In this document: piece by piece, positions 28,150 to 31,916 of the stretch
Numbering within the stretch: position 1 is the stretch's first letter
Layout of the letters: each line of letters begins with the position of its first letter
Assembly (NCBI GenBank): GCA_963675665.1
Contig: OY776510.1
Coordinates: forward strand, 864,001 to 928,000
Source of the DNA: Spirochaetia bacterium
GTDB lineage: Bacteria > Spirochaetota > Spirochaetia > UBA9216
Direction of reading: 5' to 3'
DNA: 64,000 nt
Notes under the pieces: model-generated
What the model saw: only the letters and a program-made list of their open reading frames with translations
The model's database searches: none
Told to the model about the DNA's origin: nothing
Made by a program: the position numbers and the translations under genes

Positions 28150-29406
28150 TTACACAAGTCCGGGAAAATCAAGAGTGGCAAAATAATCATTCGGCGTTTC
28201 TGCACGTCTGATCTGAACTACTGATCCGTCGGGTTCAAGCAGCAGTTCAGCGCTTCGTAATTTTCCGTTGTAGTTGAATCCCATTGCATAACCATGTGCT
28301 CCTGTATCATGGAACACAAGGACGTCTCCACGTTCGAGATGCGGCAGTTCCCTGTCAATTGCGAACTTGTCGTTGTTCTCACAGAGGGAACCTGTTACGT
28401 CAACCGGGCCTTCGACAGGTTTATTTTCCTTGCCTATCGGTGTGATATGATGATATGCCCCGTAAAGCGCAGGTCTCATCAGGTTGGCCATTGAGGCATC
28501 CATACCGATAAAAGTTTTATATGTCTCTTTTCTGTGAAGAACCTTTGATACCAGGTAACCGTATGGCCCCATAATCATTCTTCCGGATTCCATTACGATT
28601 CTCAGTGCCGAAAGGCTGTTTTTCTCAATTTTTTCTTTATAAAGAGCTTTTATTCCGGCAGAGACTTTTGCAAGATCTACGGGCTCTTCTTCCGGTTTGT
28701 ACGGAATACCTATACCGCCGCCGAGATTAACAAAATCAAAGGTAATACCAAGTTCCCTGTTCAAATCGAGAACAAGTTGAAAAAGAATATCGGCGGTTTC
28801 AACAAAATATTCCCAGTTAAGCTCATTTGAGGCCACCATTGTGTGAAGGCCGAAATGTTTAATGCCTTTTTCTTTTAATCTCCGGTATCCTTCAAAAAGC
28901 TGTTCACGTGTAAAACCGTATTTGGCCTCTTCCGGCTTGCCTATAATAACATTTCCTTCCTTCAGGGGGCCCGGGTTGTACCTGAAGCAGATTCCGTCGG
29001 GAATACCGGCTGCTTCTTCCAGATAATCGATATGACTGATATCATCGAGATTAATGATTACGTCAAGTTGCCTTGCTTTCAGATATTCTTCAGCCGGGGT
29101 GTCGTTTGACGAAAAGAAAATCTCGTTTCCTTTCAGTCCGACTGCATCGGCGAGCATCAGTTCAGGCAAAGACGAACAGTCAGCTCCCATTCCTTCTTCC
29201 CTGAGTATTTTCATAATATGCGGGTTCGGACAGGCTTTTACAGCAAAAAAGTTTTTAAATCCGCCCGGAACCCAGTTGAAGAGCTTATAGAGCTTTTTTG
29301 CATTTTCCCGTATCGCTTTTTCATCATAAATATGAAATGGTGTAGGGTATTTCTCAATAATCTTTTTAAGCTGCTCTTCTGAAAAGGGAAGCGTTTTAAT
29401 GCTCAT
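28150..29406 (-). CDS. lysA: Diaminopimelate decarboxylase
   Basis: PTPFHIYDE, FAVKACPN, NLGGGIG, ESGR, GSLCENND, TGAHGYAMGFNYNG. Confidence 0.94.
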   Translation of the reverse strand: MSIKTLPFSEEQLKKIIEKYPTPFHIYDEKAIRENAKKLYKLFNWVPGGFKNFFAVKACPNPHIMKILREEGMGADCSSLPELMLADAVGLKGNEIFFSSNDTPAEEYLKARQLDVIINLDDISHIDYLEEAAGIPDGICFRYNPGPLKEGNVIIGKPEEAKYGFTREQLFEGYRRLKEKGIKHFGLHTMVASNELNWEYFVETADILFQLVLDLNRELGITFDFVNLGGGIGIPYKPEEEPVDLAKVSAGIKALYKEKIEKNSLSALRIVMESGRMIMGPYGYLVSKVLHRKETYKTFIGMDASMANLMRPALYGAYHHITPIGKENKPVEGPVDVTGSLCENNDKFAIDRELPHLERGDVLVFHDTGAHGYAMGFNYNGKLRSAELLLEPDGSVVQIRRAETPNDYFATLDFPGLV

Positions 29407-29468
29407 TTGGATCTCCTATAAAAAGTCAACCACAAGCTAAAAATATAAGCTTATGATCTGGTCGGATA

Positions 29469-30581
29469 TCAACCGACCATTACAGCTTCCCATGCTGCTG
29501 CCTGCATTTCCCTGTATTCTTTTCTAAAAGCCATTTTCATCGGATCAAACGGCTCTCTGGTTTTTAAAATTGTATATACCAAAGTGCTCATCTTGCGGGC
29601 GGCAGCTATTACACTCTTACCCGAGCCTTTCTGCTTCTTCATCGCTGCATACTTCGTCATTATTCGGTACGTCCCGGTCTTCTTTTGCATACGAACCATT
29701 CCCATCACCATCTGTACGAAGGCTGTCCTCAGTTCTACAGGCCCACGCTTTGTTATATGTCCATGATGTATTGTCATATTTGAGTTCTGCACCCATGGCA
29801 CAAGCCCGGCGTTTGCTGCATATTTCTTCGCACTATCATATCTGCCGATATCGTCTGTATAGGCTCTTACTGTTGCTGCTGTTATTAGACCCACGCCTGG
29901 TATTGTCTGCAGAAGCTCAACATCTTCATCGTCCTCCACAAGCTCAGCCAAAACCTTTTCAAGCTGCTTGACTTGCGATGCCTGATTATCTATCATATCC
30001 AGTAACGGTATTACCGTTTTGGCAGCGCTTCCGTAAAAGTCGTGGTCCTCGAGACCGTTCAGGATTCGCTGCCTTTCTTTTTTACTCTGCAGCTGTCCGC
30101 GTTTGGTCTCTATTCCATAACCAAGTAATAAGCCATGCACCTGGTTCTTTAACGACACAACAGATTTTACCAGTATCGACCTGGATTTCAGCACCCTTCG
30201 AATATCCTCACTCTCTTGGGAACATAATATCGATTCAGGCAGCATGTCTTTCTCAAGAAACTCCGCCAGGGTGCGTGCATCATGTTTGTCTGTCTTTTTT
30301 ACAGATTCATTCACTACCTTGAATTTCAAAGTATTCACTACAACCACTTCGACTCCAGCCTTTAACAGTTTATTGCGGAAATAACGGGCATTCCCGGTTG
30401 TTTCCACCGCTGCTCTCAACTCATATTCCTCTTCACAATATTCATCCAGCATTTTCAGAAATGCTCCATAACCATTTCCGCTGGTCGGATACATTCCCAA
30501 TTGATCAATTTTTCGGTCTTCACTTAAAAGGCATACTGTAAACTGCGTTTTGTGAAGATCCACGCCAATACTCATCTTCAT
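29469..30581 (-). CDS. IS110-family transposase/recombinase
   Basis: RuvC-like DEDD (GVDLHK, AVETTGN, KTDKHDA), LQTIPGVG, GLVPWVQNS catalytic Ser, GHITKRG. Confidence 0.96.
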   Translation of the reverse strand: MKMSIGVDLHKTQFTVCLLSEDRKIDQLGMYPTSGNGYGAFLKMLDEYCEEEYELRAAVETTGNARYFRNKLLKAGVEVVVVNTLKFKVVNESVKKTDKHDARTLAEFLEKDMLPESILCSQESEDIRRVLKSRSILVKSVVSLKNQVHGLLLGYGIETKRGQLQSKKERQRILNGLEDHDFYGSAAKTVIPLLDMIDNQASQVKQLEKVLAELVEDDEDVELLQTIPGVGLITAATVRAYTDDIGRYDSAKKYAANAGLVPWVQNSNMTIHHGHITKRGPVELRTAFVQMVMGMVRMQKKTGTYRIMTKYAAMKKQKGSGKSVIAAARKMSTLVYTILKTREPFDPMKMAFRKEYREMQAAAWEAVMVG

Positions 30582-30589
30582 GTTCTATC

Positions 30590-30780
30590 TCCAATAGTTT
30601 GAAGCAGTGCCTATACGGTGAATTGTTCCATTCTCCTATCCGGTCTCGCAGACCATTGAATGTTTCGGTTACGGCTCTTCAATCTCCTAAACGGTCTCGC
30701 GGACCAGTAAAAATGTCGAACAGTAACCTTACTGCCTCAATTAAAGTTAAGGCAGTATATCAATTCACCAGCTCATGAAG
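30590..30780 (-). ncRNA. Predicted bridge/seek RNA of the IS110 element
   Basis: Non-coding region upstream of transposase; closing stem 30617-30625/30761-30769, hairpin 30730-30757, two GGTC-GACC hairpins each flanked by the AGGAG core; ends approximate. Confidence 0.75.
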
Positions 30781-30794
30781 ACTTTTTATCATTC

Positions 30795-30942
30795 CTCCTA
30801 TAAAAAGTTCCCGCATGGATGCGGGTTTTAAGAGGTGAGGTTGTAAAGCTAAACTGCGTTTGCAGTTTAAACTGCGTTGCAGTTTTTGTTTTACAACTTC
30901 AAAATGATAAAATTGCATGGAAGCAATTTTATCATTCCTCCT
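30795..30942 (-). mobile_element. Non-autonomous mini-element with the same ends as the adjacent IS110
   Basis: CTCCTATAAAAAGT (30795-30808) equals 29413-29426; TTTTATCATTCCTCCT (30927-30942) equals 30784-30799; interior is all short palindromes, no ORF. Confidence 0.75.
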
Positions 30943-31004
30943 GAAATTATTTACGGCCCGCTTTTTAAAAGCCGTTATACATGAGTATTTATGTTAATGA
31001 CCGG

Positions 31005-31916
31005 TTAGGTCAATACCTTTACTTTGTTCTTTTTAAGCACCAGTGAGCCCTCGGGGCCTCCGGCGTCCTGTGCTACCGCGGCGCATTTTATTCTAAAAAG
31101 AAACCATGTCGGCGGCAGGTTTTCTCCCGACAGGGCTTCATAGTTTCCCTGTCCTTTCGAGATAATAATATCGGCCGAATTGAGTCTTGTAATAAAACCT
31201 GGATCACATTCCGATAAAACGGTTCCCGCTGTTGCCGCACCGGAACTGATTGTTTCAACTAATTTGTCTATGCCCACTGTTCTGGTGTCTTCCAACAGCG
31301 CGTCATTGAGCGCCGGTCCGCCGCGGACAACGAAAGTAATCTTTTTATCGGGAAAATCGGTAAGCAGGGTTTCAATGAAAATCCGGTCGAAGACAATCTC
31401 GCCGGCGTTGTCTCCGAGATAAATGATATTTTCAGCCTGTTTCAAATCAATGTGGAAATCCTCGAGCATGAAAAGCCCGTCATTGAAATCGTCTCCGTTT
31501 TCTATATGCTGAAAAAGCGGCTGGTCAAGAATTTCTTCAAGCGCTTCATTTAAATCAAGTGAAACCTTTGCTCCGAAGTCAATCAGGTTGCCTGCAATTG
31601 CAAGTGCAAGCGCTTCTGCAAACGGGTTATCAGCCTCTGTGACGCGTTTTTTCAGCTGCGGATACAGCTTCATTGCCGCTTCATTACTTGCGACCTTTAT
31701 TTTTTTATACGGATCGGCGATTCCTGTAGCTTCCTTAATCTTTACGGTAAGATAGGCGGCCATTTCGGGCGGGGTTACAGCGTCGGCAAGATCAGCAAGA
31801 TTTTCCAGCAGTTTATGAAATTCAATGCTTAATTCTTCTTCACCGATGCCGCACATGCGGCTGATCTGAAGATACTGTTTAAGCAGGCATACTACACAAT
31901 CAGGTTTGGCTATCAT
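31005..31916 (-). CDS. DUF89/ARMT1-like damage-control phosphatase
   Basis: DPYKKIK, AIAGNLIDFG, GDNAGEIVFD, LNDA, SKGQGNYE. Confidence 0.92.
   Translation of the reverse strand: MIAKPDCVVCLLKQYLQISRMCGIGEEELSIEFHKLLENLADLADAVTPPEMAAYLTVKIKEATGIADPYKKIKVASNEAAMKLYPQLKKRVTEADNPFAEALALAIAGNLIDFGAKVSLDLNEALEEILDQPLFQHIENGDDFNDGLFMLEDFHIDLKQAENIIYLGDNAGEIVFDRIFIETLLTDFPDKKITFVVRGGPALNDALLEDTRTVGIDKLVETISSGAATAGTVLSECDPGFITRLNSADIIISKGQGNYEALSGENLPPTWFLFRIKCAAVAQDAGGPEGSLVLKKNKVKVLT

Follow-up and report, generated by a model that had tools for sequence, protein, structure and literature searches.

The element considered here is a transposase-less unit of three hairpins in the 5′ leader of lysA in a Spirochaetia bacterium, where it lies beside an insertion sequence (IS) of the IS110 family. 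Both fall within a 64,000-nucleotide stretch of contig OY776510.1 (positions 864,001 to 928,000 of the forward strand; hereafter the window), whose numbering is used throughout unless genome positions are stated. Read along the minus strand, the locus comprises an ARMT1-like gene, a promoter-like site, an orphan AGGAG, the unit, a second AGGAG, the IS, a third AGGAG, six nucleotides (nt), and the ATG of lysA (Table 1). lysA, whose orthologues are 81-87% identical in all five congeners, is the gene whose ribosome-binding site took the insertions. The AGGAG copies, read as CTCCT on the plus strand, were located by sequence reading and repeat search at 29413-29417, 30795-30799, and 30938-30942, as an earlier note on this DNA had listed them. 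That note took the unit for a mini-element sharing both ends with the IS, inserted in tandem and mobilized in trans, an interpretation that the present analysis supports in part. The reading favored here, which we hold to be evenly poised between right and wrong, is that the unit is an older resident serving as a landing pad for the IS and not its current passenger. It appears to be at least a landing pad, and only possibly a passenger.

Table 1. Features of the lysA leader and its neighborhood (window coordinates; ORF, open reading frame; aa, amino acids; SD, Shine-Dalgarno sequence)
Feature	Coordinates	Strand	Evidence and remarks
lysA-type diaminopimelate/ornithine decarboxylase gene	28150..29406	-	418-aa ORF; Pfam Orn_Arg_deC_N and Orn_DAP_Arg_deC
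Working lysA SD, AGGAG-N6-ATG	29413..29417	-	First CTCCT copy; inferred CT core within
IS110-family IS	29418..30794	-	1377 bp, flanking CTCCT excluded; one of 15 copies
DEDD recombinase gene	29469..30581	-	370 aa; DEDD_Tnp_IS110 64.9 bits, Transposase_20 64.3 bits, both above cut-offs
Left-end non-coding region encoding bridge RNA	30582..30794	-	Fold z -4.9; two paralogous loop modules; kept in IS relatives
Donor-binding loop	30629..30667	-	RNA arms AUAGGAG (complement of + 30633-30639) and CAUUC (complement of + 30658-30662)
Target-binding loop	30680..30718	-	RNA arms UUUAGGAG (complement of + 30684-30691) and CAUUUUUACU (complement of 30706-30715)
Middle CTCCT	30795..30799	-	Junction of IS left end and unit
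Unit of three-hairpin repeat family (TD-2 type)	30800..30937	-	In lysA 5′ leader
Hairpin 1, CCCGCAT-GG-ATGCGGG	30810..30825		Fold
Hairpin 2, long stem enclosing two AAACTGCnnnGCAGTTT inner hairpins	30836..30901		Fold
Hairpin 3, perfect 14-bp stem, loop ATGGAA	30903..30936		Inverted repeat AATGATAAAATTGC/GCAATTTTATCATT at 30903-30916 and 30923-30936
Distal CTCCT	30938..30942	-	Orphan AGGAG, ~41 nt after promoter-like site; expected position of native lysA SD
Promoter-like TTGACC-18-AATACT	30984..31013	-	Consensus scan
ARMT1-like (DUF89) phosphatase gene	31005..31916	-	Upstream neighbor; syntenic in 4/5 congeners

Although it has no transposase, the unit ends as an autonomous IS110 element does. 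The 14-bp string CTCCTATAAAAAGT stands identically at 29413-29426 and 30795-30808, and the 16-bp string TTTTATCATTCCTCCT at 30784-30799 and 30927-30942, both lengths including CTCCT; repeat search thus returned the right-end and left-end identities given in the earlier note. Over 15 nt, the unit's distal end, GGAGGAATGATAAAA, agrees with the IS left end together with the core, and the string 30784-30808 is the circle-junction (donor) sequence of the IS. This end sharing is not due to chance, and is a property of the whole repeat family described below rather than of this copy alone. Between the ends lie the palindromes already recognized from the sequence. Hairpin 1 is followed on the gene strand by a U-run, AACTTTTTAT, and receives a terminator-like score; in hairpin 2, a GTTGTAAA/TTTACAAC stem encloses two AAACTGC..GCAGTTT hairpins in the predicted fold; and the outer arm of hairpin 3, a perfect 14-bp inverted repeat, is the part held in common with the IS left end. 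Compared with shuffles, the folding energy of 156 nt has a z of -9.2 on the plus and -8.6 on the minus strand, with 0 of 200 shuffles as good. Apart from two chance ORFs of 41 and 52 aa that overlap it, the unit has no ORF, and by repeat search both bridge-RNA loop modules are confined to the IS, so that the absence of transposase and guide loops holds as first described. A consensus scan of 30800-30937 found no promoter on the gene strand. The interiors of the unit and the IS have no similarity apart from a single 12-nt word, TAAACTGCGTTT, found in the recombinase gene at 30539-30550 and in the inner hairpins of hairpin 2 at 30850-30861 and 30868-30879 (a 92% copy); the rough chance expectation of this recurrence is ~0.01 in this stretch.

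The IS, whose right end spans 51 bp, has the attributes by which the IS110 family is recognized: both protein domains, a two-loop RNA in a non-coding left end, and site-specific insertion with a repeated core. The 5.15-Mb genome holds 15 full-length matches of 1377 bases, listed at 100% identity (bit scores of 2484 for eight and 2480 for seven). All 15 are flanked by CTCCT, and all 15 lie 5-7 nt before the ATG of an ORF of 93-662 aa that runs in the same direction as the recombinase gene. The flank at the left end starts TAT-AGGAG in nine copies, TTT-AGGAG in three, and otherwise in the remaining three. On the left-end side of six of the 15 there is a unit, that is, the IS sits at the gene-proximal end of the unit.

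The left-end non-coding region contains two paralogous modules, each consisting of a small GGUC..GACC hairpin and then G-NNN-AGGAG-AWUG. A scan of species-representative genomes yielded 80 loci that encode relatives of the recombinase, and flanks were read for 45 of them (52-79% identity). Across these relatives, the 2-3 nt that precede AGGAG in the target arm covary with the left-end flank. In an Oceanispirochaeta metagenome-assembled genome (MAG), the arm is UAC and the flank ends in AC at 8/10 sites; in a Syntrophales MAG, the arm is CAA and the flank ends in AA at 8/9; in Marispirochaeta, the pairing is UUA with TA (5/5); three copies from Desulfobacterota MAGs (L108, L109, and L137) have CAA in both arm and flank; and the relative G028 has UCG with a flank ending in G. 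In the genome under study, the arm is UUU and the flank ends in T in 13/15 copies. The other module behaves likewise toward the ends of the element. In the relatives read, its (G/A)AUAGGAG arm equals the right-end TATAGGAG, and its 5′ arm CAUUC is replaced by CGUGC, CAUGC, or CAUAC in step with GCACG, GCATG, or GTATG at the left end (exceptions: L114 and L136). This covariation of arms with flank and ends identifies the modules as target-binding and donor-binding loops. Guide assignment and SD targeting are established, as are the order of events and the family membership treated below. The donor site is approximately TATAGGAG-GAATG, and the window unit has both halves, in register. A variant of the IS in marine metagenome run X1 (depth ~75) differs at 30682, 30689, and 30690, turning CTCCTAAA into CTCCTTTA on the plus strand; altered in its target-guide letters, it looks from these letters to be a natural reprogramming of the target loop.

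The relatives come from MAGs labeled Oceanispirochaeta, Syntrophales, Desulfobacterales, Gracilibacteria, Dehalococcoidales, Dysgonomonadaceae, Marispirochaeta, Alkalispirochaeta, Treponema, and Leptospira, their higher labels including Spirochaetota, Desulfobacterota, Gracilibacteria, and Bacteroidota. Where readable, their left ends are AGGAG-GAATGATAAAAAG, with GCACG, GCATG, or GTATG replacing GAATG in some, and nearly all of their right ends, judged by eye, are ..TTGACTTTTTAT-AGGAG, with a start codon a short spacer further on. Since the same ends recur across phyla, the IS lineage had them ancestrally and did not take them from local repeats. Five other genomes with IS relatives gave no sign of mini-elements when searched with the left-end 15-mer, whose occurrences were few and near IS copies (nine for nine in the Syntrophales MAG). 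The left and right ends of the lineage (for example in L112, L131, and L132) form sub-terminal inverted repeats of 10-20 bp (ATAAAAAG..GTCAACCGGGAG and CTCCCGGTTGAC..TTTTTAT). When the ends are joined, a long palindrome arises with AGGAGGAATG in its loop, and six units have a hairpin 3 (stem GATAAAAAGTC/GACTTTTTATC) that mimics it. A second IS110-family element is present in seven copies between genome positions 554254 and 5031834; its 387-aa recombinase is 23% identical to the first, and it targets a different hairpin, ..GGGTT|ATTAG... One of its copies, at ~2621700-2622800, lies inside the extended hairpin 3 of a unit that has the first IS at its gene-proximal side.

The unit, for its part, is not alone. 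A genome search with the 138-nt segment, of the kind the earlier note had suggested, returned 36 matches, four of them full-length (100, 87, 91, and 89% identity) and sharing the expanded form of hairpin 2; the segment is multi-copy, and another of the four also directly adjoins an IS copy. Iterated nhmmer profiles extended the family to 33 left-end and 55 right-end modules at E<=0.05, to which the window copy is linked, for about 50 units of 75-181 bp each. On the plus strand, their layout is CTCCT-ATAAAAAnTT, hairpin 1 of the CCGCATGGATGCGG type, a variable hairpin 2 (GAAGTTTG..CAAACTTC), and hairpin 3, which ends the unit as AAAATGATAAAA-nnnn-CAYGGA-nnnn-TTTTATCATTC-CTCC. Most units carry CTCC at both ends, and hence an orphan AGGAG distally. 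Of the left-end modules (33 in all), 22 adjoin the start codon of an ORF that is 60 aa or longer, four adjoin an IS, and six adjoin another unit; one is misaligned. Median pairwise identity is 65%, the best dispersed pair reaching 91.9%, and all pairs at or above 94% lie within tandem arrays, namely five units at genome positions 1652333-1652895 and three at 2973058-2973370. In the five-unit array, units are up to 99% alike and are joined by ..CATAAATCCTCCTGAAATAATT.., which misfits the donor loop of the IS; arrays can therefore grow without that recombinase.

This family is filed as TD-2 type. On the Rfam TD-2 model (RF03162), the window copy (30847-30940, plus strand) scores 35.2 bits (E 0.0067) where the gathering score is 48.7, a shortfall due to its expanded hairpin 2; the covariance-model alignment misregisters this hairpin onto hairpin 1 of the model. 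Nine sibling units in 20 loci exceed the gathering score (49.2-62.6 bits), 27 TD-2 matches at E<=0.001 are found in this genome, and the three-hairpin architecture with its conserved loops is common to the window copy and the units that pass. By sequence homology, then, the window copy is a divergent relative within the family. TD-1 and TD-2 were reported as candidate structured RNAs of unassigned function, found in Treponema denticola only (Weinberg et al., 2007; PMC1950547). TD-1 is usually 5′ of genes and partly overlaps the reverse complement of TD-2, which, according to that account, lacks the 5′ regulatory configuration that TD-1 has. The units here resemble TD-2 in a hairpin 1 with CCGCCAUGGAUGGCGG-like sequence, a hairpin 2 of GAGUUU..AAACUC, a long hairpin 3, rich in A/U, whose loop is ACGGAU-like, multiple copies, and covarying stems, and differ from the species range given there in belonging to another family of the class. 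Across 151 genomes of that class, matches were confined to the family from which the window comes, including all five congeners (3, 4, 3, 12, and 19 matches) and one sister-genus genome, and to one other genus, whose four complete genomes of 2.7-2.8 Mb hold 19 to at least 25 matches each. No TD-2 match was obtained in five other genomes with IS relatives, nor in G012 and G028, relatives with fragments or copies of this IS.

The order in which unit and IS arrived can be read from an allele without the IS. Contigs of four public runs were aligned to 28900-31400, a comparison in which contigs drop rare variants. A 347-nt marine metagenome contig from a different study runs from 29194-29412 directly into 30795-30922, with two mismatches per part. 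Because this IS-free contig, which represents a near-identical strain, joins the lysA SD to the unit, the unit was resident first and the IS came second. The proposed insertion "in tandem" is thus reversed: the IS landed beside a unit already in place. In runs X8 and X10 (depths 7.9 and 5.1), there is also a joint from 29432 to 30762, 33 nt inside the IS left end and with six extra letters; its shorter side has one mismatch in only 20 nt, the assembled genome does not contain it, and it may be spurious. How the unit itself came to lysA is suggested by the congeners. The locus is syntenic in four of the five (G001 excepted), and in all four the leader is without a unit, its promoter and SD being ordinary. 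The promoter-like site of the window is, from its sequence, probably the native lysA promoter, its TTGACC box recurring in the lysA leaders of G003, G004, and G005 (three of the four). The distal AGGAG lies 41 nt past the promoter-like -10 box, about where the relatives have their SD. Together, the unit-free leaders and the position of this AGGAG argue that the unit was itself inserted into the lysA SD, with the limit that junctions cannot be aligned between species. Since the segment is multi-copy and is absent from lysA in all four syntenic congeners, the objection foreseen in the earlier note, a single-copy sequence shared with the same locus of relatives, does not cleanly apply. A metagenome-contig scan with the LysA N-terminus gave no strain-level allele (best match 75% identity), and neither exact empty sites nor recent identical copies were found among close strains.

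These results bear on the possibility that the unit is a deletion derivative, that is, the remnant of a second tandem IS copy after internal deletion. It would account for the sharing of both ends and for the occurrence of TAAACTGCGTTT in both recombinase gene and hairpin 2. However, the interior is homologous to about 50 other units and to TD-2 and not to the IS, and the unit is present at lysA where no IS is. Family homology, TD-2 scores, and the IS-free allele led us to discard this origin, to which hardly any probability attaches, in accord with the earlier note, which had also set it aside.

The landing-pad reading can be stated as a sequence of steps. A unit of an old, dispersed family of three-hairpin palindromes, which in this genus lie within SD sites with AGGAG on both sides, became part of the lysA leader later than the separation of this species from its congeners and earlier than the arrival of the IS. 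The bridge RNA of the IS, with AGGAG fixed in both loops, directs integration to SDs, in the direction of the downstream gene. As the gene-proximal end of the unit (TTTTTAT-AGGAG) suits the target arm, UUU-AGGAG, as well as the donor arm, AUAGGAG, the IS would land at the junction of unit and SD, where repetition of the core produces the tandem look. According to a preprint (10.64898/2026.08.31.748434), IS621 can be driven to insert off target by half-matches to the donor arm.

Several observations weigh against stopping there. Left-end modules are at a gene start in 32 of 33 cases, be it directly, via an IS, or via another unit, and the insertion signature of the units is that of the IS itself, with AGGAG on both sides, the same orientation, and the SD position. 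The likeness of the ends goes beyond what targeting alone would give, as the distal 15 nt are identical to a cross-phylum left end, which IS relatives from several phyla carry without having the repeats. Conversely, seven units read from the other TD-2-bearing genus have neither CTCC ends nor an SD position, so that these features accompany the likeness to the IS. Four units upstream of congener genes have no counterpart at the orthologous loci of this genome (0/4), and neither has a further one whose orthologue match is weak (38% identity); such species-specific loci imply that something moves the units. Finally, contig alignment misses rare variants, and a rare excision of the unit would have been invisible to it.

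The rival reading makes the units passengers: TD-2 cores that would have acquired donor ends and been moved, now or formerly, by SD-targeting IS110 recombinases, the present IS being merely the latest visit of an autonomous partner. On paper, the donor half-sites that a unit bears, TATAGGAG and AGGAG-GAATG, could let the recombinase with its bridge RNA cut the unit out and insert it again, and the joint of the excised circle would read ..CATTC-CT-CCTATAAAA... Among 50 units, exact half-sites of the left-end type are found in 17 and of the right-end type in 20, and both in 12, the window unit included, where they stand in register. The sequence of the IS circle junction recurs exactly at 30784-30808 and where one unit meets the next in the array at 2973058-2973370. 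The gain of the unit at lysA in this lineage only, the species-specific loci, the IS-like SD signature and orientation, and the ancestry of the IS ends across phyla, set beside the lack of such ends in the other genus, all point the same way. Experimental precedents also fit: a 22-bp donor suffices with bridge RNA supplied in trans (PMC11208160), excision requires recognition by the donor arm only (preprint 10.64898/2026.08.31.748434), mini-IS constructs consisting of ends only move when transposase and RNA are supplied (PMC11187229), and MITEPpu9 offers a natural parallel (PMC12288879). Movement of the unit by the recombinase of this IS is therefore plausible.

Against the passenger reading stands, first, the distribution of the putative partner. 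Within the window's own family, the IS110 domain PF01548 is found in this genome, G004, G009, and weakly G008, the G004 recombinase being distant (22% identity to that of the window); it was not found in G001, G002, G003, G005, G006, G007, or G010. In four of the five congeners and in G006 the domain was thus not found, yet all of them hold same-ended units, the TD-2 matches in G001, G002, G003, and G005 numbering 3, 4, 3, and 19; an autonomous partner does not consistently accompany the units. This absence is read from drafts that are 81-100% complete, in which an IS contig may have been lost, although G003 is 100% complete in 50 contigs. Ten units from these relatives, read by eye, share the architecture, with GGAATGAT distally in 8/10 and TAT-AGGAG at the gene end in 7/10. 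The four complete genomes of the other genus have no IS110 domain (0/4) and yet are TD-2-rich, and their copy numbers indicate that another route of spreading exists. Second, no dispersed pair of units exceeds 92% identity, as against 15 IS copies listed at 100%, and 38 of the 50 units miss one or both exact half-sites. The five-unit array was amplified with a junction that misfits the donor loop. Stems that are 93% Watson-Crick at 65% overall identity are unlike decaying copies of miniature inverted-repeat transposable elements (MITEs). Third, no joint skipping 30800-30942 was found in the contigs of the four runs, from which rare excision would escape. One unit lies upstream of the same gene, starting MAL(K/T)DYTKEIERCSACSYCKW, with alike flanks, in genomes of two different genera (G001, L049; G008, L050); going by these sequences, either the entire region moved by transfer, or one unit at least is both old and stable.

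As a general proposition, that the TD-2/TD-1 units of this clade are SD-inserting non-autonomous elements moved by a cross-phylum, AGGAG-programmed IS110 lineage seems to us a serious contender, about one to be entertained while leaning toward the landing pad, and we rate the passenger origin of the window unit the same. Of the mini-element proposed in the earlier note, the shared donor ends, the lack of a transposase, the multiple copies, and the SD insertion stand; its standing as a creature of the neighboring IS is undercut by an old TD-2-type family that occurs, too, in congeners where no IS110 domain was found.

Both of these readings take the likeness of the ends at face value. Alternatively, the unit may have nothing to do with the IS and be a terminator or leader element, the ends having come to resemble one another through the SD context (an A/T-rich run plus AGGAG) and an A-rich arm. 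CTCCTATAAAA indeed occurs 54 times in the genome, SDs without units included; the other genus has a hairpin 3 with the stem ATGAAAAAT/ATTTTTCAT and no IS; and hairpin 1 with its U-run is terminator-like on the gene strand. Convergence nevertheless seems improbable to us. A 15-nt identity at a fixed place beside AGGAG is not readily had by chance, the distal orphan AGGAG of most units would have no role, and mismatches do not betray selection on an RNA. In hairpin 3, 605 of 650 pairs across units are Watson-Crick (93%), and G-T and A-C mismatches number 8 versus 9 there and 18 versus 14 in hairpin 1; equal counts of the two give no sign of selection on one RNA strand. Whole-unit folds contain 76 versus 87 G-U pairs on the two strands, and this wobble-pair test as a whole favored neither strand. 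Our best guess is that the hairpins act as a palindrome at the level of DNA or as a leader hairpin that ends or insulates transcription before the SD.

Known systems offer several points of comparison. One precedent is MITEPpu9/ssr9 beside ISPpu9 in Pseudomonas putida (PMC12288879), which likewise lacks a transposase, has flanks that resemble the IS's own left and right parts, stands in tandem with it in some copies and alone elsewhere, and has been proposed, as here, to be mobilized in trans. For MITEPpu9, minicircles were observed and the targets are REP sequences, into which ISPpu9, itself of the IS110 family, inserts, whereas the present units are known from sequence alone and target the SD. 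Unlike MITEPpu9, they number about 50, are older than the IS burst, and persist where no IS110 is found. Unlike the TD-2 units of the other genus, they are flanked by CTCC(T) and situated at SDs. As dispersed extragenic palindromes with tandem clusters and stems perfect on both strands, they recall REP/BIME sequences and their RAYT (Y1) transposases. Unlike those, they have no such partner: Y1_Tnp (PF01797) matched nothing in this genome, G004, G048, or G075 (the last two TD-2-rich), and its single match, in G003, is a broken copy, so that a REP/RAYT-type system was set aside on its absence from 4/5 genomes searched.

The IS in turn resembles IS621 (PMC11208160) in its DEDD recombinase, its two-loop left-end RNA, and guide arms that covary with target and donor and include the core, as they do in the published bridge-RNA scheme. 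Sequence reading also places a promoter-like TTGACT-17-TAAAAA across its joined ends. Unlike in IS621, AGGAG is constant in both loops and only the adjacent 2-3 nt vary, which makes the SD the target class. In this IS, moreover, the arm in the sense of the left flank and AGGAG strand lies 3′ of the small hairpin, whereas the IS621 guide is on the 5′ side of the loop. Matching of the arms to the left/right, top/bottom rule of IS621 was tried and abandoned, the arms appearing mirrored.

The TD-2 motif, IS110 elements that prefer repeated palindromes (ISPpu9 and ISPpu10), and MITE-like modules linked to IS110 are all known already. Within the literature searched, what appears to be new is that donor half-sites held in common tie TD-2-type repeats to an IS110 lineage, and that this lineage is programmed for the SD; no account of the latter was found there, and the supplements of the bridge-RNA papers may list such targets. 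Should the passenger idea be wrong, the locus would be an ordinary case of an IS110 preferring a repeated palindrome. Should it be right, the units would be natural minimal donors of ~25 bp around the core, and would show, for engineering, how little donor sequence the enzyme needs. TD-2-type units with bridge-RNA donor half-sites in ribosome-binding sites suggest how repeats of this kind may spread, an idea that is concrete and open to test. The IS lineage places each insertion just upstream of a start codon, in the direction of the gene, and leaves the SD of that gene intact; if the units are indeed its passengers, the 5′ leaders of about 50 genes in this genome would have been rewritten by them.

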